A stretch of DNA of 64,000 nt. Origin: Thermoanaerobaculia bacterium (GTDB lineage: Bacteria; Acidobacteriota; Thermoanaerobaculia; Multivoradales; Multivoraceae). The notes beneath the pieces are model-generated. The model saw only the letters and a program-made list of their open reading frames with translations. It was not told the origin of the DNA and did no database searches. Below are positions 3,258 through 55,610 of this stretch, one piece after another. Both the position numbers and the translations under genes were made by a program. Each line of letters starts with the position of its first letter. The first letter of the stretch is position 1. The DNA lies in the NCBI GenBank assembly GCA_022822365.1, contig JAJEBV010000008.1, forward strand, positions 169,524 to 233,523, given 5' to 3'.

Positions 3258-3295
3258 TGGCCGGAGCGTAGCGCAGCAGTGGAGTGCGGAATCAC

Positions 3296-3338
3296 GCCGC
3301 CTGCGGCGGCAGCGGGTCAGAGGACCCGCGCACCCAGA
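3296..3338. repeat. 43-nt double-hairpin repeat, copy A (variant)
   Basis: cgccgccTGcggcggcagcgggtcagaGgacccgcgcacccag. Two stem-loops (GCCGCC/GGCGGC and GCGGGTC/GACCCGC). Lies intergenic between aceB and glcF. Confidence 0.7.
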
Positions 3339-3364
3339 GGACGGCCCCGGTGGAGGGGAGCGCT

Positions 3365-4936: not shown

Positions 4937-5156
4937 GCTGCCGTCTCCCCTAAGGGCCGGCCTGTCGCCGGCGTCTCGTTTCCCTTAACTGCTGCAACCT
5001 GCCCAACCAGGACGCGTAGACCTGTCTGGCGAAGCGGCGGCAGCTTAGCGGAAGCGCCGGCGCCTCCCTCGAATGCCGCCCGGCCAACCGGTGAACGTGA
5101 GACAATGCCGCGGCGCTGCTCGCCCCGGAGCGAGGCGCCCCGACCGGAGGTTCCCA

Positions 5157-8534: not shown

Positions 8535-8554
8535 CATCCACGAACGAAACGCCT

Positions 8555-8618
8555 CCGCCACTGGGTGCGCCGGCGCCCCCGCCGGCACCAGGCGCGATGC
8601 CGCGAAGCGGCGAGCCCG
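8555..8618. repeat. ~65-nt GC-rich repeat, intergenic copy
   Basis: ccactgggtgcgccggcgcccccgccggcaccaggcgcgatgccgcgaagcggcgagcccga. Lies between the tricorn stop and the PQQ-protein start. Contains the hairpin GCCGGCG-CCC-CGCCGGC. A second copy lies at 18825-18888 inside the MTase CDS. Confidence 0.7.
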
Positions 8619-8643
8619 AGCCAATCCCATTCAGGAGAATCCC

Positions 8644-10043: not shown

Positions 10044-12233
10044 GTGAGCCCTCCGCATCCCAGCACGGAGCCACGGTCGACGAGAAGCGCCGGGCGCGTC
10101 GCGGTCCTCCTGCCCTGCCTCAACGAGGAGGCGACGATCGGCAGCGTCGTGGGGCAGTTTCAGACGGCCCTGCCCGAAGCCTCCATCTACGTCTGCGATA
10201 ACGGTTCGGAGGACGGCACCGCCGAAGCCGCCCGCAGGGCCGGCGCCGAGGTCATCGTCGAGGAAGGGCGCGGCAAGGGCCGGGCCGTGCGCCGCCTGTT
10301 CCAGGAAGTCGACGCCGATGTCTACCTGATCGCCGACGGCGACGGCACCTACCACGCCGCCAGCGCCGAGCGTCTCGTTTCCACGCTGGCCGGCCGCTAC
10401 CTGGACATGGTCGTCGCGGTTCGCCGGAGCACGGAGCCCGGCGCCTACACGCCGATCCGCCGCCTCGGCAACCGCCTCTTCAGCCTGCTCGCCCGGTGGC
10501 GCTGCCACCGAGCCGTCCGGGACCTGCTCTCCGGTTACCGCGCTTTCTCCCGCCGGTATGTCGACGCCTTCCCGGCCCGCTCCGACGGCTTCGAGGTCGA
10601 GACCGAGATGACCCTGTTCGCCGCGTCGGCGGGAATGGCCTGGGACGAGATCGAGTGCCCCTACTTCGCGCGCCCGCCAGGGTCGCGAAGCAAACTGCAC
10701 GCCTTCCGGGACGGTCTCCGGATCCTCCAGACGCTCCTCTGGGCGCCCGCTGCGGCCGCGGGTGAGCAGCGCCTCGGCGCCTTGCGGGCCGCCGTCCTGG
10801 TGGCCGCGGTAACGGCCGTCGCCACGGCCTCCTTCCTCGGCCTCAACTGGCTCGCGGCGACCGCCGATCCGGAGCCCGTTGCCGACGCTCTCCGGGCCTC
10901 GTACGAGCACCCGGAACGCACTCTCGAGGACTCCGCCGAGCGCTTCAACGACTGCCTGCTGAGCCTGATGGCGCTCGACCGCGGCGGCACGCTCGTCGAA
11001 CGTACCGTCTCGCCCCGGCGCGTCTACCGCTACACCCGGCCCCAGCGCCCCTGCGACGCCCTCGAGCAGCGGCTGAGCCAGGGGGCGGTCGACGACTCCG
11101 ACTACCTGACCGTCTTCTACCACCAGTACTGGGCCGGCCAGCGGGTGATGCTGCAGGGGCTGCTGCCGCCGCTCGGCGTCGACGGCCTGAGGCGAACGCT
11201 GCGGGTGCTGACGTTCGGCCTGCTCGGGCTCGGGTTCTTCGGCGCGCTGGGACGCATCGTCCTTCTCTTCATCGGCCGCGAGCCCGAAAGCAAGGCGGCC
11301 GGAGGCCGGCCGGAAGGCCGGCGCACCGACAGGGCGGCGCCGCGCCAGAGCGCCGGCAACTCGAGGCGCTGGCGCGAGCACTTCTTCCAGGCGACTGCCC
11401 TCGCCGCCCTCTTCCTCAGCCTGTTCCTGTTCCTCGACCTGGACCGTCGCGCGGGGAGCTTCACCACCGGCGCCTCCAACGTCCTGACTCTCGCCCTGCT
11501 CGTGGCGGTGCCGGCGTTCGGGATCGCCAACTGGAAACCGGGACGCCAGGTCCTCCTCTTCGCCGGTTTCGGCGCCGCGATCGCCTACCACGAACTCCTC
11601 TTCGGCAGCGCCCTGATCGGCCTGGTCTGCGTGCTCCTCGCCCTCTCCACGGCGCCGCCCCCCGTCCACGCCACGGTCGCGGTCGCCCGGCACTGGTGGC
11701 CCGCCCTCTACCTGCGCTGCGGCGGCGCCTACGTCGGTTGCCTCTCCGCCGTCTTCCTGCTCCGCGTCGTCATCGCCGAGTTCGTGTTCAGGGAACCGGT
11801 GCTGTTCAAGTTCTGGGATCAGCTCACGCACCGGCTCTACGGAGCGCCCCGCAGTTCGATCCATCCCGATATCGACGTCTTCTACGCCTCCCGGCCGACC
11901 TTGGAGAGGTTCCTCGAACGGCTCGGAAACAACCTGGGCACCGTCGGCTTCGGCTCGACCGCGGTCGCCCTCATCCTGATCGGCGGCGCGGCACTGATCC
12001 TGATCGCCGCGACCGTCTTCGTCCTGAAGCAACGGCCTTCCCTGGAAGAACCCTGGCGCTGGCTCGGCGTTCTCGCCGCCGGCTGGTGCGTTCCCGCGTG
12101 GTACGTCGTCTTCTCTGCTCACTCGATGGCGCACGTACCGGTGGCGATCCGCCTGCTGGCGCTGCCCTACGCGGCGGCGGCGGTGCTCATCGTGGGCGTT
12201 GCGGTGTTCGGCCGGCGGACCGAGGTTGTTTGA
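10044..12233 (+). CDS. family-2 glycosyltransferase fused to a large polytopic membrane domain
   Basis: The N-terminus (VAVLLPCLNEE...YVCDNGSEDGT...IADGDGTY) is a GT-A/GT2 fold with a DXD motif. The C-terminal ~450 aa has many hydrophobic helices. Confidence 0.75.
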   Translation: MSPPHPSTEPRSTRSAGRVAVLLPCLNEEATIGSVVGQFQTALPEASIYVCDNGSEDGTAEAARRAGAEVIVEEGRGKGRAVRRLFQEVDADVYLIADGDGTYHAASAERLVSTLAGRYLDMVVAVRRSTEPGAYTPIRRLGNRLFSLLARWRCHRAVRDLLSGYRAFSRRYVDAFPARSDGFEVETEMTLFAASAGMAWDEIECPYFARPPGSRSKLHAFRDGLRILQTLLWAPAAAAGEQRLGALRAAVLVAAVTAVATASFLGLNWLAATADPEPVADALRASYEHPERTLEDSAERFNDCLLSLMALDRGGTLVERTVSPRRVYRYTRPQRPCDALEQRLSQGAVDDSDYLTVFYHQYWAGQRVMLQGLLPPLGVDGLRRTLRVLTFGLLGLGFFGALGRIVLLFIGREPESKAAGGRPEGRRTDRAAPRQSAGNSRRWREHFFQATALAALFLSLFLFLDLDRRAGSFTTGASNVLTLALLVAVPAFGIANWKPGRQVLLFAGFGAAIAYHELLFGSALIGLVCVLLALSTAPPPVHATVAVARHWWPALYLRCGGAYVGCLSAVFLLRVVIAEFVFREPVLFKFWDQLTHRLYGAPRSSIHPDIDVFYASRPTLERFLERLGNNLGTVGFGSTAVALILIGGAALILIAATVFVLKQRPSLEEPWRWLGVLAAGWCVPAWYVVFSAHSMAHVPVAIRLLALPYAAAAVLIVGVAVFGRRTEVV

Positions 12234-12350
12234 AATCTCGGAGCTACTCATCATGAGATTGCGGACTGGAGATTCAGAAATCTCGGAGCTAGTGATCTTG
12301 AAATCTCGGAGTACACTAACCGGAAATCTCGGAGTACAACTGAGACTTCG
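12231..12350. repeat. AT-rich cluster of four direct 12-mer repeats GAAATCTCGGAG, with degenerate and inverted partial copies, upstream of the ATPase gene
   Basis: Exact copies at 12232, 12277, 12300 and 12323 (spacings 45, 23, 23). Partial inverted copies occur (gagatt at about 12255 and 12270). Local GC about 45% against a ~70% background. The 11-mer CTTGAAATCTC (12297-12307) recurs inverted at 33913-33923. Confidence 0.7.
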
Positions 12351-13945: not shown

Positions 13946-16900
13946 ATGCAGCCGTCAGCACCGCCGTCCATCCCCCGGGTGGGCATGCTCGCCCGGGTCC
14001 GCAACCGCCGCGGCATCGTCGCTTCCGTCGAGCCATTCGACAACCCACACGGCGCTGACGCCGGCCGGCTGCATCTGGTCCAGGTCGAGTACAAGGACCA
14101 CGACTCTCCGCACAGCGAGCGTCTCCTCTGGGAACTCGAACCGGGGCGCAAGCTGCTCCCACCAAGCCAGCTGCCGCGGGTCCACGACACCTCGCCGATG
14201 CCGGCCGAGGACTTCGACGCCCTGGTCCGCGCCGCACGCTGGACAGCCCTCATGCCGTACCTCGATCCCGACGGCGCCGGCCCGCTCGACCGCCAGCCGG
14301 TGTCGAGCCCGCTGCACAGCGGCATCCGGGTAGAGGACTACCAGCTCGTCCCCCTGCTGCGCGCGCTGCAGATGCCGCGAGTGAACCTCCTCATCGCCGA
14401 CGATGTCGGACTCGGCAAGACCGTCGAAGCCGGGCTCATCCTCAAGGAGCTCCTGCTGCGCCGACGCATCCGCCGAGTGCTCGTCCTGGCGCCCGCGGCA
14501 CTGCGCATGCAGTGGCGCGAGGAGCTCGACACCAAGTTCGCCCTGCCGTTCGAGGTCGTCGACCGCGACCGGACCGAGCGCTTGCGCCGCGAACTCGGCA
14601 TCGACGCAAACCCCTGGCGCTCGTTCAGCCGCATCGTCGCCTCCTACCACTACCTGCGCCAGCCGGACATCCAGGAGCAGTTCCTGGCCGCCAGCCAGAC
14701 GCACGACGGGTCGCCCCGGCTTGCCTGGGACCTCCTGATCGTCGACGAATGCCACAACCTGATGCCCTCGCCCTTCGGCGACGACAGCGAGCTGTGCCAG
14801 ATGCTGCGGCGGATCGCACCCTGCTTCGAACACCGGCTGTTCCTCTCCGCCACGCCGCACAACGGCCACACCCGGTCGTTCACCGGTCTGCTGGAGATCC
14901 TCGACCCGGTGCGCGTCAGCCAGACCGACGAACTGACCAACCGCGCCCGGGCCCGCGTCGGCCAGTTGGTGGTCCGCCGCCTGAAACGCGAGCTGAACCA
15001 GGAGTCCGCCGCGCCCCGGTTCTGCACTCGCAACCCACCGGAACCTCTCCTTCTCCACCGGAGCCGGCGCGAACAAACCCTGTCCGAGGCCTTCCACGCC
15101 TTCCGCACGGCCGTCCGCGGCGCCATCGCGGCCGGCCAGGCCCGCGAACGGGCGGGGACCTTCGCGATCGAGATCCTGGGCAAGCGCCTCCTGTCCTGCC
15201 CGACCGCCTTCGCCGACTCCTGGTACCGCGCGCGCGACGGCTACGCCCGAGCCGAACGGGCCGCAAGAGCCGCGACCGACGCCGACGTGACGGCGGCGCA
15301 ACGCTCAGTCGAGCGCGAAACCTCGGACGACCGGGAGACCGAAGAGCGCACGGGAACCGCTGCCGGCGTCGTCGGCGCCTGGCTGCTCAACGTGGCGGAC
15401 TCGGTCGCCGCCGAGATGACGGCCATCGACAACGTCCTCGAAGCCCTCGGCTTCACGCCGGACGGTCCGCCGGCCATCGAGCAGACTCCCAGGGTCGACG
15501 CCCGCTTCGACGCCCTGTCGGACCTGATCGACCGGCTCCTGCTTCTCCCGGCCGCCACTGACTCGACGCCTGCCTTCCACGACGACGAACGCCTCGTCGT
15601 CTTCACCGAGTACAAGACGACCCTCGACTACCTCGAACGGCGCCTGCGAGAGCGCTACGACTCCCGCGTGCTGACTCTCTTCGGGTCCGGCGGCGCCGGC
15701 GGCATGGACGACACCGACCGCAACCGGGTCCGGGAGGCCTTCAACGACCAGGACTCCGAGGTGCGCATCCTGATCGCTACCGACGCCGCCTCCGAAGGCC
15801 TGAACCTGCACCGCAGCGCGCGCTACCTGTTGCACTACGACTGCCCCTGGAACCCCTCTCGCTTGGAGCAACGCAACGGCCGGCTCGACCGCTACGGCCA
15901 GGCTCGCGACGTGACGGTGCATCACTTCCTGAGCAACGACGACCCGGACCTCCGGTTCCTCGACCACGTGATCAAGAAGGCCGACGAGATCCGCGAAGAC
16001 CTGGGATCGGTGAACGAACTCTTCGATGTCGCCGCTCACCGCCGGCTGATCGAGGGCGAGGACCTGCGAAGGGTCCAGTTCGACCTGAACCACGGACTCG
16101 AACATGAAGTCGAACGGCTACGAAGCCAGGGAATCCCAGGCCTGACCGCTTTTTCCTCGCAGGAGCAACTCGGCGAGGCGGAACTGCTCCGCGTTCGCGG
16201 CGGCCGGGCACTGGCCGACGAGGATCCGGCCAAGCGCCTGGCCGCGCTGGCCACCGAGATCGACTTCGATGCCGCCGCGCTCCGGCTCACGCTCGAAGCT
16301 GCCATGGCCGCCACCGGCGGAGGCCGGCCGCAACTTCGCCACGCTCCGGCCGAAGACGACTTCTGGCGTCTCCTCCGCCCGGATCTCCCGGGCTGGCGCG
16401 ACACGATCGACGAGTCGGTACGGCAGCCGACCAAAGACGGTGTTCACGGCGGGACCCGGTCACTCGCCTTCGACCCCGACTCCCTGCTACGCCGGGTGGG
16501 CGGCCGCGGCGTGTTCTCCCCACGGCAAGAGGTCGCGCTGCTCCACCTGGCGCATCCGATGATCGAGCGCACGCTGCGCGTGCTCACGCAACACCGCCTG
16601 CCGGGCCCAAACGAAAAGGCGCGTTGGACAGTGCGGCGCGGCGGCGTACCCCACGGCGTCGACGCCCTGATCCTGCTCAGCCTGGAGGAACTCGCCGTCA
16701 ACGAACTCCGCGAGACCTTCCACCACTGGGTGCGGACAATCGCCTTTCCCGTTCAGGGAGGCGTTCTAGGCGAACGCGAGCGCCACGTCCCCGCCCGCAA
16801 CCTGGCCGCTTCCGCGCGTGCGGCCCGCACAGACGCCGGCAACGGATCACTTCCCGGCGACTTGTCCGCACCGACGCAAGCCGAGGAGGACCTTGCAAGA

Positions 16901-17347
16901 ACGATCTTCCTCGATGTCGAAGCCGACCTGGAAGCCGTCGTGACCCGCCACGCCGAAGGCCTGACCGAGTCGCTGCGCGAGCAGTTGCAAGTCGACGGCC
17001 AGGAAGCCCTGAAACGCGAAGACGAGCGCTACCGCAGCCGCCAGGGCGAAGTCTCCGAACTGATCGAGCAAACCCGCATCCAACGGCTGGAACGAGAGAT
17101 CGAGAAACTCCGCCGCGAGCAGCAGCAACGCCTCCTCTTCGATCAACGCCGCGACCTGGAGCGCATCGCCGGCTCCATCCAGGAGAAGCAACGCGAGATC
17201 GAGCATCGCCGGCGCCACTACGAAGACGCACGCGAGCAACTGGAACTCGAGCGCCGGCGGATCGTCGACCGACTCCTGCCGAGGCGCCACGCGCTCGCCG
17301 GGAAGGCGCAGGCCTTCCCCGTCGCCGTCGAGGTGCGGCTACCTTGA
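13946..17347 (+). CDS. SNF2-family helicase (DISARM DrmD-like)
   Basis: 1133 aa. SNF2 N-domain motifs (LIADDVGLGKT, DLLIVDECHNL, LFLSATPHNG) and a helicase C-domain (LIATDAASEGLNL, CPWNPSRLEQRNGRLDRYGQ). Coiled-coil C-terminus. Immediately upstream of an N6-adenine MTase. Confidence 0.8.
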   Translation: MQPSAPPSIPRVGMLARVRNRRGIVASVEPFDNPHGADAGRLHLVQVEYKDHDSPHSERLLWELEPGRKLLPPSQLPRVHDTSPMPAEDFDALVRAARWTALMPYLDPDGAGPLDRQPVSSPLHSGIRVEDYQLVPLLRALQMPRVNLLIADDVGLGKTVEAGLILKELLLRRRIRRVLVLAPAALRMQWREELDTKFALPFEVVDRDRTERLRRELGIDANPWRSFSRIVASYHYLRQPDIQEQFLAASQTHDGSPRLAWDLLIVDECHNLMPSPFGDDSELCQMLRRIAPCFEHRLFLSATPHNGHTRSFTGLLEILDPVRVSQTDELTNRARARVGQLVVRRLKRELNQESAAPRFCTRNPPEPLLLHRSRREQTLSEAFHAFRTAVRGAIAAGQARERAGTFAIEILGKRLLSCPTAFADSWYRARDGYARAERAARAATDADVTAAQRSVERETSDDRETEERTGTAAGVVGAWLLNVADSVAAEMTAIDNVLEALGFTPDGPPAIEQTPRVDARFDALSDLIDRLLLLPAATDSTPAFHDDERLVVFTEYKTTLDYLERRLRERYDSRVLTLFGSGGAGGMDDTDRNRVREAFNDQDSEVRILIATDAASEGLNLHRSARYLLHYDCPWNPSRLEQRNGRLDRYGQARDVTVHHFLSNDDPDLRFLDHVIKKADEIREDLGSVNELFDVAAHRRLIEGEDLRRVQFDLNHGLEHEVERLRSQGIPGLTAFSSQEQLGEAELLRVRGGRALADEDPAKRLAALATEIDFDAAALRLTLEAAMAATGGGRPQLRHAPAEDDFWRLLRPDLPGWRDTIDESVRQPTKDGVHGGTRSLAFDPDSLLRRVGGRGVFSPRQEVALLHLAHPMIERTLRVLTQHRLPGPNEKARWTVRRGGVPHGVDALILLSLEELAVNELRETFHHWVRTIAFPVQGGVLGERERHVPARNLAASARAARTDAGNGSLPGDLSAPTQAEEDLARTIFLDVEADLEAVVTRHAEGLTESLREQLQVDGQEALKREDERYRSRQGEVSELIEQTRIQRLEREIEKLRREQQQRLLFDQRRDLERIAGSIQEKQREIEHRRRHYEDAREQLELERRRIVDRLLPRRHALAGKAQAFPVAVEVRLP

Positions 17348-20300
17348 GCCTCCAGGGCTGGAACGATCTGCGCCACGGCGGCCTGCTGCTCGACGCGCAA
17401 CGCCAAAGCGAAATCGCCGCCTCCACCCGTGCCCGCGTCCTCGATCCGTGGCTGGAGAGCGAGGCCCGCCGGCGGGCCGACCTGCTCCGCGACCCTGGCG
17501 CCGCCAACGCCGGCGAACGCACCGAGTTCGTCAGCTTCGTGCTGGAGAGCCTGTGCGGCTTCGAACCGGACGACCTGGGCAGCCGCTGGCTGCGCGGCAG
17601 CCGCATCCCAGCGGAATGGAGCCGTCGCGCCCTGACCGGCGAAAGCGTCCGCCCAAACCACCTATGGCTGGGGCCGAAGGGAGCCGTCCTCCCCGTCTTC
17701 GTCACCGGCGACAGGCAGGTCGGCATCGGCCGCGGCCGGCGCGAAACGAGCCGCGCCCTCGGTTGGCTGCGCGCCGGCAACGAACGGCTCGCCCTGCTCA
17801 CCAACGGCCGCCAGTGGCGGCTTCTCTTCGCCGGCCTCGACTTCGACGCCTGGTGCCAGTGGGACGCCGACCTCTGGTTCGCCGAGGGGGCTCCCACGCC
17901 GGCCCTGAACGCGCTGCTCACGCTGATCCAACCGGAGCTCTGGACACCCGAGGAAGAAGGCGCCGACCCGCCCCTGCTGCGCGCGGTCCGCGACAGCCGC
18001 AAGGGCCAGTCCGAACTCTCCGAGGCACTCGGCGAACGTGTGCGCGAGGCGGTCGAACGCCTGATCCAGGGCCACGGCGAAGCCCTGAAGCAAGAGTGCG
18101 CGACCGTGGACAAGGCCGACATCTACCGCGCCGCCTGCCGCGTCGTCATGCGCCTGGTGGTCATCCTCTTCGCCGAAGCGCGGGGACTGCTGCCGCGGAA
18201 CGACGCCGTCTACCACGACAGCTACGGCCTGGGCGGCCTGCACGAATCGCTGCGGCGCCGGGCGGCGGCCGGACGCTCGCAAACCCAGAGCTACGGGGCC
18301 TGGCCGCGGCTGCTGGCGCTGTTCAAGCTGGTCCGCAAGGGCTCACACCACCCCGACCTTGCCGTTCCCGCCTACGGCGGCGACCTGTTCGCACCCGGAT
18401 CGCCTACAGCCGACGACCGCCTTTCGCGCGCTCTGGCCGTCTTCGAGACCGCGTGTCTCGACGGCGAACTCCTCTCCGACGCCGAAGTCCACGAGATGCT
18501 GGAGCGTCTCACCCGGACCCGCATCCGCATCCGCCAGGGCAAGACCAGCCGCCTCGTAGCGGCGTCCGTCGACTTCTCCGATCTCTCGACCGAGTACATC
18601 GGCGTCCTCTACGAGGGTCTGCTCGACTACGAACTCAAGACGGCGCCGAGCGACGACTCGATCATCTTCCTTGCCGTCGGCGAGCAGCCGGCGCTGCCCC
18701 TGTCACGACTGGAAGAAATGGACGACAAGGCCCTCCGCAGCCTCTTCGCCGCGATGAAGAAGGCGTCCAGCCCCGACGCCGACGAGGATTCAGCGCCCAC
18801 CGACTCCGCATCCGACGACGCTCCCCCACTGGGTGCGCCGGCGCCCCCGCCGGCATCGGGCGCGACGCCGCGAAGCGGCGAGCCCGAACCCACCGAAGAC
18901 CCCCGCCAGACCATCCGCACCCACGCCGAAGCCTGGGCCCGCCACGCCGCCCTCACTGCCGGCCTCGTGAAGAAACCACCGAAGTCCCAAGCAACCCTCC
19001 TCTCCTCCCACGAAGACGAACTCCGCAAACGCGCCGCCCAACTCGTCAACCGCGTCGTCCTGCCCAACGAGTGGTACCTCGTGCGCTGGGGCGGCACCCG
19101 CAAGGGCTCCGGCAGCTTCTACACACGGCCCGGCCTCACCGTGCCCACCGTGCAACGCACTCTTCGCCCGCTGGCCTACGACCCGCCGCTCGATGACGAC
19201 GGCAAACCCGACCGCGATGCCCCACCCGCGGACTGGACTCCTAGGCGTCCCGAGGACATCCTGAGCCTGAAGGTCTGCGACCCGGCCTGCGGCTCCGGCA
19301 GCTTCCCGCTGGCCGCACTCCGCTTCCTCACCGACGCGCTCTACGCCTCCGTCCGGCACCACCGCCGCATCGAAGACCGGGACGACCGCTCCCTCGTCCG
19401 CCTGCTCGGCCTGGACGACTCCGGGGAGACCGAGGCCGATGCCGTCGAGCGACCGGGCGACGAACTCATCCCCTGCCCACCCGACGCCGACGACTTCGAG
19501 CCGCGGCTGCGCGCCGTTCTGCGGCGCTACGTAGTCGAACGCTGCATCTACGGTGTCGACGTCGACCCGCTGGCCGTTTCCCTCTGCCAGCTCTCCCTGT
19601 GGATCGAGACGATGGACCGGGACCTCCCCTTCTCCTTCCTCGACCACAAGATCCGCTGCGGCAACTCGCTCATCGGCGCCTGGTTCGACCAGTTCCAGCA
19701 CTACCCCGCGATGGCCTGGAAGAACCGCGAAGCCGGCGACAAGAACCATTCCAACGGCGTCCACTACGAGAAGGGCGCCCAGACCAAGGCGATAAAGGAG
19801 TGGGTCAAGAACGAACTGACCCCCGACCTGCGGCACACCCTGGAGGGCCGCACCCTCTTCCACGAAGACCTGCTCGAACAGGCGGCCGCCGCCCACGGCG
19901 CCGCCCTCGAAGGCCTGGAACGCATGCACCGGCTCCCCATCCGGGACTCCGCCGCCCGTGCCCGCCTCTACCGCGAGGAACTGACCGGTTCCGACGAGTG
20001 GCGCTCGCTCAAGAACGCGATGGACCTCTGGTGCGCCTGCTGGTTCTGGCCCGCCGACGAACTGGACCGCGCTCCCCTGCCCACCACGTTCACCGACCCC
20101 GGGCCCGAGACGCGCGCCGTAGCCGAACGCATCGCAGCCGCGATGCGCTTCTTCCACTGGGAACTGGAGTTCCCGGATGTGTTCCGGGAAGAGGGAGCGG
20201 GCTTCGACGCGATGCTGGGCAACCCACCATGGGACATCGCCAAACCGAAGTCGCAGGAGTTCTTCTCCAGCATCGATCCGCTCTACCGCTCCTACGGCAA

Positions 20301-22683
20301 GCAGGAAGCCCTGCGCCGGCAGAACGGCTACTTCGACGAGGACCAGGAGATCGAGCGCGACTGGCTCGCCTACAACGCCCGCTTCCGCGCCCAATCGAAC
20401 TTCGCAGCTCGTGCGGCCTCTCCCTTCGGCGATCCCGCGGAGAACGACCAGAGCGAACGGCGCTTTTACCTTGGCAAGGGCAATCTCAGTCTGCACGACA
20501 GTTGGCGCGAGACACGAGGTCGCTCACGCTGCTACGCCGACACCGACCACTCTTTCAGACACCAGGGGTCGGCTGACCTGAACCTGTACAAGCTGTTCCT
20601 AGAGCAGGCTCATGCGCTGCTCGCCATCGGAGGGCGGCTCGGCTTCCTCGTCCCGTCGGGCCTGTACTCCGACAAGGGCACCGGCCCTCTGCGGGACCTG
20701 TTCCTAGAACGGTGCCGATGGGAGTGGCTCTTCGGCTTCGAGAACCGAGCCAAGCTGTTCCCTATCGACAGCAGGTTCAAGTTCAACTCGGTGATCGTCC
20801 AGAAAGACAGCCAGACCCACGTCATCCGTACCGTCTTCATGCGCCGCGACCTGACCGATTGGGAAGAGGCCGAGGAGTTCGCCGTCCCCTACAGCCTCGA
20901 TCAGGTCAACCGATTCAGCCCGAAGAGCCGCGCGATCTTGGAGATCGAGTCACAACGTGACCTCGAAGTCCTCGAGAAGATCTACGCCAACTCGGTACTC
21001 CTCGGCGACGGCGGCCCCAACGGCTGGGGCATCGGCTACGCCACCGAGTTTCATATGACGAACGATTCGAAGCTCTTCCCGCCCCGCCCCCGGTGGGAAG
21101 CGAAGGGTTACCGCCCCGACGAGTACAGCCGCTGGCTCCTCGGCAACTGGCATCCGATCGACGAACTGTGGTCCGAACTCGGCGTCGGTCCCGATAATCC
21201 CGAGCCCGCTGCGATCGAAGTCGAAGACTGGCTGTACGAGCCCGACGCCAGCCCGGAGCGCCGCCAAGCTGAGCGCAGCTTCATCCATGGCCATTTCCTC
21301 GCACCCGGCGATGTCGAAGCCACCGGGTGGGAACTGCGGTGCGCCCAACCGCCCTACGACCGCCTGCCCGTGCCAAGAGTCGCCATTCCCGAGGGCATCG
21401 TCCTGTCGAGAGAAACCGACGCATGGATCCACGAGACCGAGATCGAGGACACGGCCCTTCCGCTGTACGAAGGCCGGATGATCGGCCAGTTCGACTTCAG
21501 CGAGAAGGGCTGGGTCAGCGGTAAGGGAAGAAGTGCCGTCTGGCGCGAGATTCCGTGGGAGCAGAAGCAGATCGAACCCCAGTACCTGATGGCGCAGAGC
21601 GCGTACGTCTCATCCGGGAAGTCGGTTTTGCGACCAAAGATCGCCTACATGCGAGTCAGTTCCTCGACAAACTCCAGGTCCACGATCGCTACGTATCTCG
21701 GCAGCCACCCCGCCGGGGACAGCGTCTTCTACTTCGTGCCCTGTGACGATGACCCGGAGGTTGCCACAGTCATCGCCTCTATCTTCTCGACGCTGGCGTT
21801 CGACTTCGTCATTCGCGCACGCCTCAGCGGCTTGAACATGAGCGAGTTCGTCATGGTGGACGCGGCCCTTCCGCCACGTCTCGGAAGCCTCACGCAAGCC
21901 ATGCTAGGGCCCGCCATAGCCCTTTGCCTCACCGGCCCCTCGTCAGCCGTGGAGCGCCTCCGCCTAGCGGCAGCCGACGGGTCTTCCCGTGCTTCCCGGC
22001 TCAAATCGCTGGCGGCCCTCACGCCGGCCGCACGGCTCGAGAGGATCTCGGCACTAGACGCGATAGTCGCAGCTTCCTTTGGCCTACGAACAGGCGACCT
22101 GAACTACGTGCTCAGGGGCTGCGACGAGATAGAGCCGGAGGGTCTGGCGCCGAAGGGCTTCTGGCGAGTCGACAAGGACAAACCGCCGGAACTCCGCCAC
22201 ACGGTCCTGGCCCAGATCGCCTTCACCGACCTTCAGCGCCACATCGAGTCCGCCGCCGGCGACCGCGAAGCCGGAATTCTGGCTTTCATGTCACAGAACC
22301 AGGGCGAAGGCTGGCACCTCCCCGAGACCCTCCGCCTCGCCGACTACAACCTCGGCCACGACGACCGCGCCCAAGAGCACCAGCGGGTAGCCACCGAACT
22401 CGGTCCTCGCTTCTACGATTGGCAGCTCGCCCAGACGCCTGAAGAAGCCTGGGCCGAAACCCACCTCCACGCCCGCAACCTCTTGGGCGAACACGCCTAC
22501 CGCAGACTTCGAGCCGAAATCGAGCAAAGGCCTCCAGAGCACACTCCCGCCACCACCGCCCCGACCTTCTCCGAGATCGCCGAAGAGCGCCACCGTTGGG
22601 ACTACTGGGTCAACCGGACGGCAGAGCCCACCTCGAAGCCCTCGAAATCAGTAAACACGGACCAGACTGACCTCTTCGACTGA
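17344..22683 (+). CDS. large N6-adenine DNA methyltransferase (PglX/DrmMI-like, gamma-class)
   Basis: TTG start overlapping the drmD-like stop (cTTGA). About 1779 aa. SAM motif I LKVCDPACGSGSFPLAAL (about 19272-19305) and catalytic motif IV GNPPWD (about 20221-20232). The track ORF 16624.. is extended upstream by read-through of the previous gene in another frame. Contains an in-frame copy of a ~65-nt repeat at 18825-18888. Confidence 0.8.
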   Translation: MSLQGWNDLRHGGLLLDAQRQSEIAASTRARVLDPWLESEARRRADLLRDPGAANAGERTEFVSFVLESLCGFEPDDLGSRWLRGSRIPAEWSRRALTGESVRPNHLWLGPKGAVLPVFVTGDRQVGIGRGRRETSRALGWLRAGNERLALLTNGRQWRLLFAGLDFDAWCQWDADLWFAEGAPTPALNALLTLIQPELWTPEEEGADPPLLRAVRDSRKGQSELSEALGERVREAVERLIQGHGEALKQECATVDKADIYRAACRVVMRLVVILFAEARGLLPRNDAVYHDSYGLGGLHESLRRRAAAGRSQTQSYGAWPRLLALFKLVRKGSHHPDLAVPAYGGDLFAPGSPTADDRLSRALAVFETACLDGELLSDAEVHEMLERLTRTRIRIRQGKTSRLVAASVDFSDLSTEYIGVLYEGLLDYELKTAPSDDSIIFLAVGEQPALPLSRLEEMDDKALRSLFAAMKKASSPDADEDSAPTDSASDDAPPLGAPAPPPASGATPRSGEPEPTEDPRQTIRTHAEAWARHAALTAGLVKKPPKSQATLLSSHEDELRKRAAQLVNRVVLPNEWYLVRWGGTRKGSGSFYTRPGLTVPTVQRTLRPLAYDPPLDDDGKPDRDAPPADWTPRRPEDILSLKVCDPACGSGSFPLAALRFLTDALYASVRHHRRIEDRDDRSLVRLLGLDDSGETEADAVERPGDELIPCPPDADDFEPRLRAVLRRYVVERCIYGVDVDPLAVSLCQLSLWIETMDRDLPFSFLDHKIRCGNSLIGAWFDQFQHYPAMAWKNREAGDKNHSNGVHYEKGAQTKAIKEWVKNELTPDLRHTLEGRTLFHEDLLEQAAAAHGAALEGLERMHRLPIRDSAARARLYREELTGSDEWRSLKNAMDLWCACWFWPADELDRAPLPTTFTDPGPETRAVAERIAAAMRFFHWELEFPDVFREEGAGFDAMLGNPPWDIAKPKSQEFFSSIDPLYRSYGKQEALRRQNGYFDEDQEIERDWLAYNARFRAQSNFAARAASPFGDPAENDQSERRFYLGKGNLSLHDSWRETRGRSRCYADTDHSFRHQGSADLNLYKLFLEQAHALLAIGGRLGFLVPSGLYSDKGTGPLRDLFLERCRWEWLFGFENRAKLFPIDSRFKFNSVIVQKDSQTHVIRTVFMRRDLTDWEEAEEFAVPYSLDQVNRFSPKSRAILEIESQRDLEVLEKIYANSVLLGDGGPNGWGIGYATEFHMTNDSKLFPPRPRWEAKGYRPDEYSRWLLGNWHPIDELWSELGVGPDNPEPAAIEVEDWLYEPDASPERRQAERSFIHGHFLAPGDVEATGWELRCAQPPYDRLPVPRVAIPEGIVLSRETDAWIHETEIEDTALPLYEGRMIGQFDFSEKGWVSGKGRSAVWREIPWEQKQIEPQYLMAQSAYVSSGKSVLRPKIAYMRVSSSTNSRSTIATYLGSHPAGDSVFYFVPCDDDPEVATVIASIFSTLAFDFVIRARLSGLNMSEFVMVDAALPPRLGSLTQAMLGPAIALCLTGPSSAVERLRLAAADGSSRASRLKSLAALTPAARLERISALDAIVAASFGLRTGDLNYVLRGCDEIEPEGLAPKGFWRVDKDKPPELRHTVLAQIAFTDLQRHIESAAGDREAGILAFMSQNQGEGWHLPETLRLADYNLGHDDRAQEHQRVATELGPRFYDWQLAQTPEEAWAETHLHARNLLGEHAYRRLRAEIEQRPPEHTPATTAPTFSEIAEERHRWDYWVNRTAEPTSKPSKSVNTDQTDLFD

Positions 22684-22799: not shown

Positions 22800-23846
22800 A
22801 TGGCCGGACTCCCGCGAATCGTCAAGGACCAGCTAGAGCAGGCGAAAGGCGCGTGCCTCGCCGCCGTCGAGACCTACAACAGGCCCGGCGTGGCCTTTCG
22901 GACACGGACATTCACCGTTCTCATGGCGATTGCGTGGACGTCGCTGTTCCATGCGATCTTCTACCGTCGCGCCCGAAAGCCCTGGTACGTGCGAAGCGGC
23001 GCCGGCCGCGGCATCCGGTATGAGAAGGTAGACGGGGAACCGAAGCACTGGGAGCTGAGCGAATGCACGCGCCAGTTCTATGGCGGCCACAACCCTCCAC
23101 AACGCAAGAACCTCGAGTTCATGGTGCTTCTCCGGAACAAGATCGAGCACCGCCACCACCCCGAACTCGATCTCGCGCTGTACGGTGAATGCCAAGCGTG
23201 GCTGATGAATTTCGAGGAACTTCTCGTAGCCGAGTTTGGGGCCGCCCAAGCACTCGCCGGACATCTTGATCTCGCCCTGCAGTTCTCGGCCTTTCGGCCC
23301 GAAGGACAGCAAGAGGCGATCCGGCGCCTGAACTCATCCGCAGCCAAAGACCTCCTAAGCTTCATTCAGAGCTACCGCGCCGGTCTCCCGGCAGATGTTC
23401 TAGAGAGTTCCTCGTACTCCGTCAGAGTCTTCCTGCTCCCCAAGCTCGCCGTCCGGGACAACGCAGCCGACCTCGCCGTGGAGTTCGTGCCGTACGACCC
23501 CACGAACCCCGAAGAGATGAAGCGGTTGAAGCGAGTCACAGCGATGATCAAGGAGAAGCTGACACCCGTTGCAAGTGCCGGCCTCATGAGACCGTCAGAA
23601 GTCGTCGCTCGCATTCAGGAACACCTACCCGACTTCTCCATCCACACGCACACGCAAGCCTGGAGGACCTACAACGTCCGGCCGCCGACCGGTGCCAACA
23701 GCCCAGCTTCGACTCGGCCCGAGTTCTGCATCTACGACGAGTTAGCTCAAGGTTATGGCTACACGGAAGCTTGGGTGAAGTTCCTCCTCCGGAAACTCAG
23801 TGACACGGCTGAGTTCGACCGAGTGATGAGCTGGAAGCCCAGCTAG
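22800..23846 (+). CDS. hypothetical protein (defence-island accessory; no motif recognised)
   Basis: 348 aa ORF with an ATG start and a protein-like, non-Arg-biased composition. Positioned immediately after the MTase. Confidence 0.5.
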   Translation: MAGLPRIVKDQLEQAKGACLAAVETYNRPGVAFRTRTFTVLMAIAWTSLFHAIFYRRARKPWYVRSGAGRGIRYEKVDGEPKHWELSECTRQFYGGHNPPQRKNLEFMVLLRNKIEHRHHPELDLALYGECQAWLMNFEELLVAEFGAAQALAGHLDLALQFSAFRPEGQQEAIRRLNSSAAKDLLSFIQSYRAGLPADVLESSSYSVRVFLLPKLAVRDNAADLAVEFVPYDPTNPEEMKRLKRVTAMIKEKLTPVASAGLMRPSEVVARIQEHLPDFSIHTHTQAWRTYNVRPPTGANSPASTRPEFCIYDELAQGYGYTEAWVKFLLRKLSDTAEFDRVMSWKPS

Positions 23847-23972: not shown

Positions 23973-24830
23973 TCAAGGTCTCGGCATTCGCCACCCGAAC
24001 AGCTCTCGCCACGTCTCAACCGCCGCCCTCAGCTTGCCCTCGTACTCGAGCTGCAGCGCCTCTTCACTGATCGCCAACCACCCGCGCGCGATGTCGGCGA
24101 GTTCTCTGCGACGTCCTTGTCCTATCCCAGCGTTCACACTTGGGCCTAAGCCCACCGGATCGGGCCAGTCGTCTGTTATCCGGTCCGCGATCGAAGCCAT
24201 GTAGAACCGGATCTCATGGCGGTACTCGCCAAACGGCTCCGTCACAAGGTCCAGGGCCATGACCTCGAGGAGAAACGCGGGCTCGATGGGGTCTCCTGCC
24301 TCGCGGTTGATTCCCTTCACCATCTTCACGAAGGGCACGAACTTCTCGTCGCACTCCTTATTCTTCGCGGTCACGAGCGCGTGCTGCTCCCGCGGATCCG
24401 TGGCCATCCACGCCGACCCGCTAGGCATCCAGTAGCCTCCTCCGCGTCGCGGGAACACCGGAGCGACCTCGTAAGACGCAACGTCTTCCTCGCCATAGTT
24501 GATCGTGACGACGTTGTCGTCGGCGGCCAGGTCCGGCCACCGCGTCGCCAGCAGGTCGCGCAACGCGAGCACCGCCGCCGTGCCCGTACCTTCGGCCAAG
24601 TCCGCCTGCGGTCCCTCCGGGTCAACGACGACAAAGATGTCCACGTCCTTCAACCTCTTCGTTTTCGTGTGCCGCCTGTAGCTGCCGGTCAGGAAGTCGT
24701 CCACTAGTTGCCACGATGCCCCGATGTGGTCACGCACCAACTCGTGCCGGGTTTGGGCCTGTCGACTCTCGGTCCTGGTGATCTCAAGATTCGACTTCAG
24801 GTTGTCGAAAGCGTCATCGACGTAGCTCAT
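23973..24830 (-). CDS. cGAS/DncV-like nucleotidyltransferase (CD-NTase, SMODS domain)
   Basis: An ATG at 24830 gives MSYVDD (the track starts at GTG 24839). Pol-beta NTase motif GSYRRHTKTKRLKDVDIFVVV (GS...DxD) and a third acidic residue in SYEVAPVF. Last gene of a four-gene coupled operon with a Trip13-like ATPase. Confidence 0.7.
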   Translation of the reverse strand: MSYVDDAFDNLKSNLEITRTESRQAQTRHELVRDHIGASWQLVDDFLTGSYRRHTKTKRLKDVDIFVVVDPEGPQADLAEGTGTAAVLALRDLLATRWPDLAADDNVVTINYGEEDVASYEVAPVFPRRGGGYWMPSGSAWMATDPREQHALVTAKNKECDEKFVPFVKMVKGINREAGDPIEPAFLLEVMALDLVTEPFGEYRHEIRFYMASIADRITDDWPDPVGLGPSVNAGIGQGRRRELADIARGWLAISEEALQLEYEGKLRAAVETWRELFGWRMPRP

Positions 24831-24839
24831 TCTCTTCAC

Positions 24840-27400: not shown

Positions 27401-28246
27401 TCAACCTCGCTCTGCGGCCTCGTACACCGGCTTCCTCAACTTGAAGAACCACTCCGGCACCATCGGGCTAAGCCGCCGATGTTCGAAGAGGCGGGCCTGC
27501 ACGAGCCGGACGTCGCAAAGTGTCTGACTACCAGACTGCGCCCCAGCCCGTGACAGGAAGCGATGCAGCTTCTCCATGCGGATCCTTGCCGCAGATTGAG
27601 CAGTAACCGCCAATACCACCCACGCGACAAGCCTGAGACACGCCGCCACCAAGAGAACCACGTCCAGCAGTGAAGCCTCTGCAAGCACCGCCCCCAGAAG
27701 GACCGTCACCACCGACGCACCTACCAACGACTTGACGACCCAGATCCACTCCCTGCGTAATCGCTCCTCCCAGCGACAGCTAGCCCTCTGGCAGTGCAAC
27801 TGCGCCGCCACCGGCTCCGCGGGAATGGCTTCCGCTCGATACCAGTCAACCAGATCCTCCGGCGAGTCCCTTCGCGCGCTCCCTTTTCTCGCCAGCTCCT
27901 TCACTCTGTCATCCGTGGGCTGCTCCACACCGCTGTGAGCCGACCAAGGTAGGTCAAGGACGAAACAGTCAAACGCCTCCTGGATCGTCGCAGCTTCCTC
28001 CTTCATCCGGTCCCCCCACCGAGCCAGAAGCGGCTGGTCCACGAACCAAAGCAAGACAACGATGACGGTCGCTGCGTGACTGTCCGACCCCGCCTCCCTG
28101 GTCAAGCCCCAGAGCGCTACAACCGCAACGGCCACCACGCCCCCGAGCCGCACGCCCTCTACCTTCTTGACCTGCCGGTACAGCCAACGCAGCGCCGCCA
28201 GCCTTTCCAGTGACCGCTGGCTGTTCTGCCGCTCCCGAATGCTCAC
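27401..28246 (-). CDS. predicted multi-pass membrane protein (candidate effector)
   Basis: 281 aa, GTG start. Hydrophobic helices (GVVAVAVVALWGL, ATVIVVLLWFV, LVGASVVTVLLGAVLAEASLLDVVLLVAACLRLVAWVVLAV). No enzymatic motif recognised. Confidence 0.5.
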   Translation of the reverse strand: MSIRERQNSQRSLERLAALRWLYRQVKKVEGVRLGGVVAVAVVALWGLTREAGSDSHAATVIVVLLWFVDQPLLARWGDRMKEEAATIQEAFDCFVLDLPWSAHSGVEQPTDDRVKELARKGSARRDSPEDLVDWYRAEAIPAEPVAAQLHCQRASCRWEERLRREWIWVVKSLVGASVVTVLLGAVLAEASLLDVVLLVAACLRLVAWVVLAVTAQSAARIRMEKLHRFLSRAGAQSGSQTLCDVRLVQARLFEHRRLSPMVPEWFFKLRKPVYEAAERG

Positions 28247-53224: not shown

Positions 53225-54430
53225 TTGGACCGGCCCTCGGCGACGATGACTGAGACGGCCGCGGCTGTGACGCGCGGCCACCTGCTGCGCAACATCGTCC
53301 TCTTCGGCCGCCTGCTGCGGGTCGGCAGCCTCGACGTCACGCCGACCCAGCTCCGCGACTGGGTGGCCGCGCTCGAACTGGTCGACCTCGCCCGCAAGCG
53401 GGACGTGAAGGCGGCGGCCCAAGCCGTCCTCGTCAGCCGGCGCCGCGACCTGCCCTGGTTCAACAAGGCGTTCGAGCTGTTCTGGCAGGCCCGCGACCCG
53501 CGGGAGCTCGAACAACTCGAACTCGGACTGATGATCCAGCGCCGGACCGAGCGGACAAAGCGAGCGGCGATCCAGAAGCTGGCGCTGAACGACAGCGACG
53601 GGGGCGATGAGCGCGAGGACGACCGGGACCGTACCGCCCGCGCCCAGCTCTACAGCGCCCGCGAAGCGTTGCGCCAGAAGGACTTCGCCGAACTCGAAGG
53701 CGACGAACTGGACGACATCAAGCGCCTGATGGCCACGATGCGTTGGGAGCTCGAGACCCGCCGTACCCGGCGGCTCCGGCCGGACCGCCACGGCCACCGC
53801 CTCGACCTGCGCCGGACGCTGCGCCGCAGCCTGACCCAGGGCGGGGAAATGGTCGACCTGGTCCACCGGGGCCGCAAGCACCGGCGGCGACCGCTGGTCC
53901 TGCTCTGCGACATCTCGGGCTCCATGGAGCCCTACTCGCGGCTGCTGCTCCACTTCATCTACGCCGTCTCACACCCACGGTCCGCCGACCCGGGCGTGTC
54001 GCGAGTCGAGGCATTCGCGTTCGGCACCCGGCTGACCCGTCTGACCCAGGAGCTGGCCGAACGCGACGTCGACCGGGCGCTACAGGCAGCCGCCCATCGC
54101 ATCGAGGACTGGGGCGGCGGCACCCGCACCGGCGACGCCCTGCGCGAGTTCAACTTCACCTGGAGCCGCCGCCTGCTCGGTCAGGGCGCCGCCGTCCTGA
54201 TCATCAGCGACGGCTGGGACCGCGGCGACATCGGCCTGCTCGGCCACGAGATGGAACGCATCCACCGGAGTTGTCATCGCCTGATCTGGCTCAATCCACT
54301 GCTGGGTTCGCCGGACTACCAGCCGCTGACCCGCGGCATCGTGGCCGCGCTCCCGCATGTCGACGACTTTCTGCCGGTCCACAACCTGGCGAGCCTGGAG
54401 CAGTTGGGGGACTTGCTGGCCGCGATGTAG
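53225..54430 (+). CDS. VWA-domain protein (CoxE-like) partner of MoxR
   Basis: 401 aa. VWA MIDAS region LVLLCDISGSM. Confidence 0.8.
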   Translation: MDRPSATMTETAAAVTRGHLLRNIVLFGRLLRVGSLDVTPTQLRDWVAALELVDLARKRDVKAAAQAVLVSRRRDLPWFNKAFELFWQARDPRELEQLELGLMIQRRTERTKRAAIQKLALNDSDGGDEREDDRDRTARAQLYSAREALRQKDFAELEGDELDDIKRLMATMRWELETRRTRRLRPDRHGHRLDLRRTLRRSLTQGGEMVDLVHRGRKHRRRPLVLLCDISGSMEPYSRLLLHFIYAVSHPRSADPGVSRVEAFAFGTRLTRLTQELAERDVDRALQAAAHRIEDWGGGTRTGDALREFNFTWSRRLLGQGAAVLIISDGWDRGDIGLLGHEMERIHRSCHRLIWLNPLLGSPDYQPLTRGIVAALPHVDDFLPVHNLASLEQLGDLLAAM

Positions 54431-54473
54431 CGCCGCCTTCGGCGGCAGCGGGTCAGAAGACCCGCGCACCCAG
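54431..54473. repeat. 43-nt double-hairpin repeat, copy B
   Basis: cgccgccttcggcggcagcgggtcagaagacccgcgcacccag. Lies between convergent VWA and nucleoside hydrolase genes. Identical to copy C. Confidence 0.75.
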
Positions 54474-54486
54474 CGGATCCAGCGGA

Positions 54487-55610
54487 CTACCGCCGGAGGT
54501 TCTGCTCCAGAAAGCGCGTCATCATCCGCTCGATGAACGCGGCGTCGTCGATCTCCAGCGCGACCGTCGACGCCGGCTCGGCCCCGGGTTCGAACAGGGT
54601 CATGCTGCGCTCGTCGACGGTGACGCGGCCATGTTCGAGGCCGAACAGGTCGGGCCACAGCAGGTAGCCGACGGCGACGGCGTCGAAGAGGCGCGGCGTG
54701 GTCTGGTTCCGCCCCTCGTTCCGCCACAGGGAGTAGAGCGCGGTGACCGCGTCGGTCAGCGGCGTGCCGCGCATGTGCAGGTGGAGTCGCCGGTCGGCGT
54801 CGAGGCGGACGTGATCCGTCACGTCGAGCGGGATGTAGACCACGTCCGTGCCTCCGGCCTGCACCGCAGCGTCGAAGATGCGCGACGAGGCGGCGTCCGC
54901 GAGGACGTTCCACTCGCGCTGCGGGTCGCCGCCGTCGTAGCCCGAGCGGATGGAGCCGTACATCGAGACGACCCGCTTCGCGTTCTTCAGCACGTCCGGG
55001 TCGAGTTCCAGCGCGTCGGCGATGTTCGTCACCGGGCCGACGGTGAGCAGCGTGATCTCGCCTGGACTGGCTGCCAGGGTCTCGACGATGAACTCGGCCG
55101 CCGGCTGCGCCCGCGGCTGCACCTCGTCGAAACCGCGCGCCCAGTGGAACTGCCGGTTGTACGGCGCCTCGGCGAACTGCTCGTGGGGGTTGCCGTCACG
55201 CAGCGTGACCAGGGGCGTCTCTCGGCCGACGTGGACGGGGACGTCATCGAACCCCGTCTCCCAGAGCATGCGGAGCGCCAGGGGCGCGCGGTCCGGCGTG
55301 CGCGCATGACCGACGGTGATGCCGACAAGCTCGATCTCGGGGCTCGCGAGAAGCAGAGCCAGAGCGTAGGCGTCGTCGATGTCCGAGCCGATGTCGCAGT
55401 CGAAGAGGACCTTCTGGGGCTCGGCTGGGGTGGGTTGCGCGGCAGCGGGCGCCATGGAAACGAGGAGGGCGAGGAGGAGAAGAGCCGGAGCCGGCCAGAG
55501 GCCGGCGCGTTCTTGACGCCGCCTTCGGCGGCAGCGGGTCAGAAGACCCGCGCACCCAGTGGCCAACGCCGCAACAAGTTGCCTCCCGAGACCGTCCGTT
55601 TCCTTCGTCA
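54487..55610 (-). CDS. inosine-uridine-preferring nucleoside hydrolase family protein, secreted
   Basis: Start ATG at 55610 (MVMTKET...) with the SD GGAGAGGAG upstream. Signal h-region LLLLALLVSMAPAAA. IUNH aspartate cluster DCDIGSDIDDAYAL. The N-region encodes a copy of the 43-nt double-hairpin repeat. Confidence 0.75.
55517..55559. repeat. 43-nt double-hairpin repeat, copy C (inside the 5' coding region of the nucleoside hydrolase gene)
   Basis: Identical to copy B. Its reverse complement is in frame with the hydrolase ORF and encodes GCAGLLTRCRRRRRQERAG in the signal-peptide n-region. Confidence 0.7.

Follow-up and report, generated by a model that had tools for sequence, protein, structure and literature searches.

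The window analysed here is a 64-kb stretch (64,000 nucleotides) of a Thermoanaerobaculia bacterium (assembly GCA_022822365.1, contig JAJEBV010000008.1, positions 169,524 to 233,523 of the forward strand). It carries a gene for an N6-adenine methyltransferase (MTase) directly behind a gene for an SNF2 helicase, and inside the MTase gene lies a short palindromic segment, a member of a repetitive extragenic palindromic (REP) family, which is found a second time in an intergenic spacer of the same window (Table 1). The TTG start of the MTase gene overlaps the stop of the helicase gene, and the motifs DPACGSGSF and NPPW were recognized in the translation. Full-length orthologues cover 100% of the window protein and, judged by its matches to protein models, the host is an Eco57I-type (type IIG / DrmMI-like) enzyme. 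The window has syntenic counterparts in five loci fetched from related genomes (tricorn, PQQ, glycosyltransferase, further genes, SNF2 helicase, MTase and then variable defence genes), and the adjacency of helicase and MTase is kept in all of them. A DrmD-like gene next to a DrmMI-like gene made class 1 DISARM a candidate, but DrmA, DrmB (DUF1998) and DrmC were not found among the neighbouring genes. The candidate was rejected for this reason, and the pair is not called DISARM also because the MTase is matched best by the type IIG model.

A repeat search of the window aligned positions 8553-8622 with 18821-18890 on the same strand, over 70 nt without gaps and with 93% identity (65/70 positions; family D6). 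The intergenic copy lies within the 109 nt that separate a tricorn protease gene (5073-8534) from a PQQ/BamB-like gene (8644-10029). The window contains exactly two occurrences of each half of the repeat, a 30-mer (CCACTGGGTGCGCCGGCGCCCCCGCCGGCA) and a 29-mer (GGCGCGAYGCCGCGAAGCGGCGAGCCCGA), and 100 dinucleotide-preserving shuffles of the window sequence matched neither half. In the MTase gene the 63-nt unit stands in frame 0 of the intact open reading frame (ORF), where the peptide reads PPLGAPAPPPASGATPRSGEPEP, and the unit encodes amino acids 495-515, PLGAPAPPPASGATPRSGEPE. A repeat of about 65 nt at 18825-18888, in frame inside the MTase gene and with an intergenic copy at 8555-8618, had been the original prediction from the window sequence, and it was borne out in both respects. 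The GCCGGCG/CGCCGGC hairpin it described was correct in its 7-bp stem and not in its loop, which has four nucleotides (CCCC) instead of three; the second hairpin, CGCCGC-GAA-GCGGCG, had been overlooked. The two window copies are not each other's nearest kin. Nearest to the MTase copy are the copies in orthologous MTases, followed by copies in helicases, and the intergenic copy ranks no nearer to it than copies of unrelated loci do.

The anatomy of the unit, which comprises 63 nt or 21 codons, is constant: a head, (C)CACTGGGTGC as in the MTase copy or the variant GTGTCGGTGC, is followed by hairpin 1, a spacer (AYCARGCGCGAY), hairpin 2 (GCCGC-GAA-GCGGC) and a tail (GAGCCCGA). Head-to-tail arrays, as in locus L029, have a period of exactly 63 nt. 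Because GC-rich shuffles fold about as well as single copies do (intergenic copy, z = -0.1; MTase copy, z = -2.4), the structure had to be judged by covariation across copies. For this 71 distinct copies were aligned; hairpin 1 lay outside the search pattern by which they were collected, and pair 47-57 of hairpin 2 was allowed all four combinations. Hairpin 1 was 100% paired without a single broken cell. Both partners have changed in four of its seven pairs, and its stems GCCGGCG, GCCGGCC, GCGGGTC, GCGGACC and GCGGGCC were each accompanied by the exact complement. Hairpin 2 was 98% paired, and pair 47-57 was CG in 65 copies and UA in six, without a mismatch. When the partners were shifted by 1-3 columns as a control, pairing dropped to 26-43%. 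The covariation of the stems shows a constraint on nucleic-acid structure, not on the peptide. An outer third helix (columns 36-40 with 61-65) can be drawn for the MTase copy, but was rejected since it is 70% paired across copies. The Rfam search of the whole window at gathering thresholds gave no match, and the element is therefore not a described RNA family. At neither foot of either hairpin was a GTAG or CGTC tag conserved in the 71-copy alignment, the conserved flank being CTGGGTGC. No terminal inverted repeats are formed by the two ends of the unit (CACTGGGTGC... and ...GAGCCCGA), and no target-site duplication was visible between filled and empty intergenic sites, which are strongly diverged.

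The size of the family was gauged by scanning one genome per species with the 3' half of the element as query. At least 110 stretches were obtained, several of them per genome (e.g. in OY762911.1 and COS1_bin_13). Among the matches listed, all stretches belonged to Thermoanaerobaculia or Ca. Multivorans-like Acidobacteriota metagenome-assembled genomes, labelled Ca. Multivorans, Thermoanaerobaculia, Holophagales, Vicinamibacteraceae or Acidobacteria; in the NCBI taxonomy Ca. Multivorans is a member of the class Thermoanaerobaculia within the Acidobacteriota. In the scans run, the family is confined to this group, and a collection of viral contigs contained no copies. From the fetched loci 123 copies were extracted, and a profile search with nhmmer gave 206 matches in 1.09 Mb of fetched DNA. 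Of these matches 170 were singlets, 28 had same-strand neighbours only and eight had an inverted neighbour within 250 nt. The window itself holds two full and three short copies.

Placement relative to genes was assessed with our own gene calls, based on the GC content of third codon positions (GC3), so the counts are approximate. Sixty-nine copies were clearly intergenic, 30 lay within stop-to-stop ORFs and 27 were left unplaced, in about 25 genomes. A stop-to-stop caller wrongly labels copies in 5' untranslated regions as genic (frames f0 and f2), and only copies with coding signal on both sides were counted as such. Convergent genes flanked 30 of the intergenic copies, co-directional genes 33 and divergent genes six. 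The co-directional copies were oriented with the genes in 26 cases and against them in seven (p = 0.0013), and many copies begin within a few bases of a stop codon. Most copies thus survive just downstream of genes and a minority inside them. REP doublets forming hairpins (REPINs), in contrast, are described as nearly always extragenic.

REP-associated tyrosine transposases (RAYTs) are Y1 HUH transposases that, like those of IS200/IS605 elements, act on single-stranded DNA hairpins. All fetched DNA was searched by motif, and two loci, L031 and L039, were found to hold genes for HUH/Y1 proteins. The protein of L031 scored 83.5 bits with the NCBIfam equivalog model NF047646 (REP_Tyr_transpos; cutoff 80), and both proteins pass Pfam Y1_Tnp, with 36.5 bits for L031 and 34.8 bits for L039. 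Repeat heads, hairpins and one full copy were found within about 200 nt of both genes, on either side. The gene of L031 has a full copy about 180 nt upstream and arrays of the head motif on either flank. That of L039 is preceded by head motifs, and downstream a tandem array of hairpin 1 is followed by an inverted short copy (5890-5960) which closely matches the short D2 family of the window. At L039 5706-5850 the RAYT frame as read continues into the hairpin-1 array, giving a C-terminal tail of VRGSSDPH x4. A RAYT gene flanked by REPs is the arrangement described for REPs and RAYTs in PMC3733652 and PMC3116915, and by analogy the present family may owe its spread to a RAYT.

The MTase is not the only gene that carries the element. 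Under a strict test, in which a copy had to lie in an open frame with GC3 of coding type to either side, 12 of 120 copies were genic; 11 of the 12 were in sense orientation, and all 11 were read in the frame …GAPA…PRSGEPE…. Several MTase copies missed this strict threshold, for which reason the genic fraction is put at roughly 10-15%. The SNF2 helicase of L005 (gene 6150-10004) contains two tandem in-frame units (…PPLGAPAPPPAPGAKSRSDEPEPNSGAPPLGAPAPPPASSAKSRSDEPEP…), at 8573-8640 and 8654-8721 (80 and 84 bits with covariance model R1), and has 1284 aa as compared to 1125-1133 aa elsewhere. A protein of the S9 prolyl-oligopeptidase family carries two to three inserts at orthologous sites in four genomes (L024, L039, L042 and L070), and these differ in stem type and in decay. 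A radical-SAM/SPASM protein has an in-frame copy in two genomes and an aldo-keto reductase has one at its N-terminus. The latter was seen in L058, in a 727-aa ORF on the reverse strand, where the REP-derived segment directly follows the start MTYRPFDG; the reductase is continuous with the ORF of an upstream GFO/IDH/MocA oxidoreductase, which may reflect either fused genes or an annotation trap. A protein search with an artificial 52-aa double unit gave no match, only 18 candidates sharing words with it, and the census of host proteins rests on DNA loci.

All complete genic copies examined, in all hosts, shared one reading frame. The statement that copies are always in sense is limited to complete ones, because a partial copy lies antisense in the glycosyltransferase gene of the window. 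The unit with the GCCGGCG-type stem, to which the window copies belong, has a stop in none of its six frames, and for each of the two other common stem types one or two frames are closed by a stop. In the used frame the peptide is rich in Pro, Ala, Gly and Ser and has a net charge of about -1. It is the only sense frame near zero charge, the other two giving +1 to +8 depending on the type of hairpin. The GGGTC-TTCT-GACCC stem, which has a TGA in the used frame, was not among the genic copies examined, whereas its TTCC-loop variant was present. The probability that one of three sense frames is shared by chance was about 0.01 when at least five unrelated host genes were counted, and about 5e-4 for eight separate sites.

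In the MTase, the segment occupies the identical site in about half of the syntenic orthologues, which are 67-81% identical, and is absent or decayed in the others (Table 1). All filled alleles share the insertion site in the DNA alignment. As the same site is filled in many syntenic orthologues, the copy is not recent or private to this genome. In a neighbour-joining tree built from the conserved flanking regions the states of the segment were interspersed, and the MTase copy thus goes back either to a single old insertion, which was then lost, decayed or converted several times, or to repeated hits at this site. The copy in L003 has fully compensatory stems (GCGGACC/GGTCCGC and GTCGC/GCGAC), that in L004 is decayed with hairpin 1 still perfect, and the MTase of L005 has one truncated and one full unit. 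The intergenic site is filled in the window, in L005 and in several other genomes; in L002-L004 the spacer measures 18-23 nt and has no repeat.

The 21 residues encoded by the unit fall, in the protein alignment, within an acidic stretch between conserved blocks, where both length and sequence are hypervariable. An AlphaFold model of amino acids 300-800 was poor (mean pLDDT 51, pTM 0.35); within it amino acids 476-517, which include the REP peptide, formed the coil of lowest confidence (pLDDT about 33), and a helix follows (fragment residues 221-239, pLDDT 71-83). A tolerant linker is thus supported by the alignment as the stronger evidence, the model adding weak support. Nothing suggests that the copy has disrupted the gene, as the predicted ORF is intact and of full length in comparison with its homologues.

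An ancestral linker selected as protein, from which the non-coding copies derive, would account for the exact position shared by many orthologues and for a peptide composition like that of other Pro/Ala-rich linkers. This explanation is refuted by the copy number, well over 100 copies, 69 of them clearly intergenic, in about 25 genomes, and by the covariation of the stems, which does not follow the peptide. The RAYT genes flanked by repeats speak against it as well. The original prediction had named as contrary evidence a segment present in all homologous MTases together with a lack of further copies. The reverse was found on both counts: in the alignment of homologues that it proposed the segment was missing from all the compared MTases of about 60% identity and from several close ones, and the search for further copies yielded many in related genomes. 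A coincidence of GC-rich low-complexity sequence is at odds with the shuffles, none of which matched a repeat half. We regard the ancestral linker and the coincidence together as extremely improbable.

The repeat could also be a recombination hotspot at which N- and C-terminal MTase modules are exchanged between strains, an alternative that had been raised from the window sequence. Dispersed repeats could in principle supply the homology for it, and both REP and acidic linker types are scattered over the MTase tree, with like acidic linkers in different subclades suggesting exchange of alleles. However, in every orthologue the identity to the window protein is the same before the repeat as after it (e.g. 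95/96, 94/93, 91/92 and 89/90% for amino acids 1-470 and 530-1000, respectively), and the strongly divergent part of the MTase, with its sharp drop in identity, begins about 900 residues downstream. The hotspot was rejected on this identity profile, and we consider it very improbable. The divergent part, amino acids 1400-1779 (21541-22683), shows about 50% identity among orthologues that are 80-96% identical over their first 1000 residues. It is probably the specificity module, and the pattern looks like exchange of a target-recognition module.

Palindromic repeats inside genes are already known. In PMC3733652 (Di Nocera et al. 2013), REPs wholly inside ORFs are reported from several species, with Opitutus terrae and Rickettsia conorii contributing the most. 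Such REPs often code for 20-30 aa, in some cases stand twice in one gene and are common in genes for DNA repair and helicases; the study argues that they sit in flexible linkers or loops. The present family resembles these REPs as a set of high-copy short hairpins that lie mostly in convergent or co-directional spacers near 3' ends with an intragenic minority, and in having RAYT genes flanked by repeats. It differs from typical REPs of 20-40 bp in its two different hairpins and 63-nt unit, and from those of that study in its host clade, uncultured Thermoanaerobaculia. The complete genic copies examined here use a single frame, and text searches of PMC3733652 brought up no statement on frame use. 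The classic in-frame palindromes are the Rickettsia palindromic elements (RPEs; Ogata et al. 2000, 2002, as summarised in PMC10969869 and PMC3733652). Like these, the present element stands in frame in many unrelated intact genes, encodes a conserved peptide thought to be compatible with folding and has non-coding copies too. RPE-1, in contrast, is about 150 bp long and has no known transposase, as compared to 63 nt and an association with RAYT here. RPE hosts have the reduced genomes of obligate intracellular bacteria, unlike the present hosts, and the genic share is nearly half in some RPE families as compared to about 10-15% of the copies sampled here. With the REPIN-RAYT systems of Pseudomonas and Enterobacteria (Bertels and Rainey 2011, PMC3116915) the family shares a single-copy-type Y1 transposase flanked by members of the repeat family, and repeats that appear vertically inherited and common to related species. 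The family behaves like these known cases but differs in its tag, its two-hairpin 63-nt unit, its organisation as singlets and its host clade.

The explanation we favour, and consider as a whole to be quite probable, is that the segment is a lineage-specific REP copy, spread by RAYT and translated as a neutral passenger in the linker of the MTase. A RAYT would make or maintain copies via single-stranded DNA hairpins, by analogy with IS200/IS605 and other RAYTs. Genic copies would survive when the frame is kept and is read as a nearly uncharged peptide rich in Pro, Ala, Gly and Ser, and the MTase copy would be translated in the hypervariable acidic spacer without effect. The hairpins would most likely be kept intact through other REP copies, which convert or replace the one in the MTase, and not by a need of the protein. 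Conversion or replacement is the simplest reading of the perfect MTase hairpins, given that unrelated loci show the same stem variants. The idea that a REP- or MITE-like (miniature inverted-repeat transposable element) sequence had inserted into a tolerant linker of a defence gene is supported in this way. We call the element a REP and not a MITE on account of its two hairpins, its prevalence at the 3' ends of genes and its relatives that flank RAYT genes, and because neither terminal inverted repeats nor target-site duplications were seen.

Several observations weigh against this explanation. The GTAG/CGTC tag of the REP superfamilies described in PMC3733652 is missing from the present family, which has the head CACTGGGTGC instead. 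REPINs are inverted doublets, whereas the copies here are mostly singlets or head-to-tail arrays. The link to RAYT comes from two related genomes, L031 and L039; the motif search found no RAYT gene in the 64-kb window, and the link therefore reaches the window genome by relatedness only. Translation of the segment is deduced from the intact ORF and not observed, and filled and empty intergenic sites have diverged too far for the boundaries of the insertion to be drawn. Finally, both hairpins are perfect in 9 of the 10 MTase copies for which DNA was available, in orthologues that are 20-30% apart in protein sequence. Such conservation across diverged MTases could mean selection on the hairpins, which the view of a neutral passenger does not predict.

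The last point leads to the main rival explanation, in which the hairpins in the defence genes function at the DNA or RNA level, through pausing or attenuation, mRNA stability, or as a RAYT target that varies the length of the linker or switches the gene, and are under selection. The compensatory changes of L003 and the retained hairpin 1 of the decayed copy in L004 agree with it. So does the variable number of in-frame copies, with two each in the MTase and the SNF2 helicase of L005. The MTase copies are also the most numerous genic copies sampled, and the adjacent helicase is hit as well, but this excess is partly an artefact, since one orthologous site was sampled in many genomes, and housekeeping enzymes carry the element too. 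The stem variants of the MTase copies recur in intergenic copies (L060, L070, L073 and L115), so that conversion or replacement suffices without selection at this site, and the MTase genes are intact in several orthologues despite decayed or missing copies. Selection for a function of the hairpins is therefore, in our judgement, improbable as the explanation of the MTase copy.

Besides the two full copies, the window contains a short sister family (B-type, D2) at three sites, all of them intergenic, which show the head CTGGGTGCGC on the reverse strand. Its first hairpin is GCGGGTC-TTCT-GACCCGC, and a hairpin with a GAA or GCA loop follows directly, without a spacer. The window has five occurrences of the 10-mer head where 0.33 would be expected, and every one of them is within an element. 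The partial segment in the glycosyltransferase gene, the weakest of the set, combines the head variant GTGTCGGTGC with the hairpin GCCGGCC-TTCC-GGCCGGC. It encodes a hydrophilic ...GGRPEGRRTDRAAP... with hydrophobic stretches on either side, and the equivalent place was matched in three of the five syntenic loci (L001 2142-2257, L002 3823-3938 and L005 3338-3453). Three copies of a 34-nt direct repeat (GAAATCTCGGAGCTA...) at 12232-12333, between the glycosyltransferase and PDC-S01 ATPase genes, are unrelated to the REP family. The helicase and the MTase lie in a defence island of about 12.4-40 kb (12366-40117), in which the GC content falls to 0.63-0.66 between 20 and 34 kb, and the genes 3' of the MTase differ in every syntenic locus.

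Table 1. REP-related elements, host genes and defence genes of the 64-kb window, and states of the segment in MTase orthologues. Bit scores and E-values of the elements refer to covariance model R1; positions are those of the window.
Feature	Position or orthologues	Strand	Details
REP copy in MTase gene	18822..18889	+	81.2 bits, E 1.9e-18; unit 18826-18888, hairpin 1 18837-18854, hairpin 2 18866-18880
Intergenic REP copy	8554..8621	+	81.5 bits, E 1.7e-18; hairpin 1 8569-8586, hairpin 2 8598-8612
B-type REP relative, intergenic	3290..3344	-	30.8 bits; head CTGGGTGCGC, GCGGGTC-CTCT-GACCCGC, then GCCGCC-GCA-GGCGGC
B-type REP relative, between convergent genes	54409..54480	-	29.9 bits
B-type REP relative, intergenic	55509..55566	-	33.0 bits
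Partial REP-like segment, antisense in glycosyltransferase gene 10044-12233	11255..11337	-	27.4 bits, E 7e-5
Host MTase gene, intact, 1779 aa	17344..22683	+	Pfam PF07669 68 bits; PADLOC REase_MTase_IIG 1354 bits, DrmMI 418 bits
Partner SNF2 helicase (DrmD-like)	13946..17347	+	PADLOC DrmD 634 bits
Island: PDC-S01 ATPase			AAA_14/DUF4143; followed by SNF2 helicase and MTase
Island: PDC-S19	22800-23846		DUF3644
Island: CBASS-type cyclase	23973-24839	-	
Island: 4TM effector of CBASS-type cyclase	27401-28246	-	
Island: ThiF/E1-like protein	30507-32075		
Island: NsnB-like AAA_21 ATPase	32072-33340		
Island: DruE-like helicase	34004-40117		2037 aa; MZB and S24 peptidase domains
Segment present, GCCGGCG-type stem	P0002, 7, 8, 10, 16, 17, 19, 25, 26, 29, 34; twice in P0030		…LGAPA.PPA…
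Segment present, GCGGACC-type stem	P0004, 9, 36		…LGARTF(R/W)SA…
Segment recognisably decayed	P0005/6, 13, 14/18, 33		
Segment absent	P0003, 11, 12, 15, 20-23, 27, 28, 32		acidic linker instead

A further idea, which we regard as rather doubtful, is that the family is coding-compatible, with 21 codons, nearly all frames open and one used frame that gives a flexible and near-uncharged peptide. It might then act as a recurrent, RAYT-dependent source of linkers and loops, the hairpins of the helicase-MTase pair being kept by selection or continual conversion and the number of in-frame copies (one or two units) tuning or diversifying the defence proteins. The finding does not reveal a new defence mechanism. 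For annotation it is a warning that such segments are derived from repeats and are not domain features, and the repeat can serve as a specific metagenome marker for this clade of uncultured Thermoanaerobaculia. The inserts of the S9 peptidase offer a good second test case for the age of insertions and for conversion. For the family as a whole, this is a clean and well-sampled case outside Rickettsia of palindromic repeats colonising protein-coding genes. It is informative in that a RAYT is tied to the family, orthologous sites are seen filled, decayed and empty across about 25 genomes, and one frame is shared by the complete genic copies examined. In the organism studied here, an odd Pro/Ala-rich stretch in a defence enzyme would be explained as selfish DNA, a repeat that has come to be read as protein.

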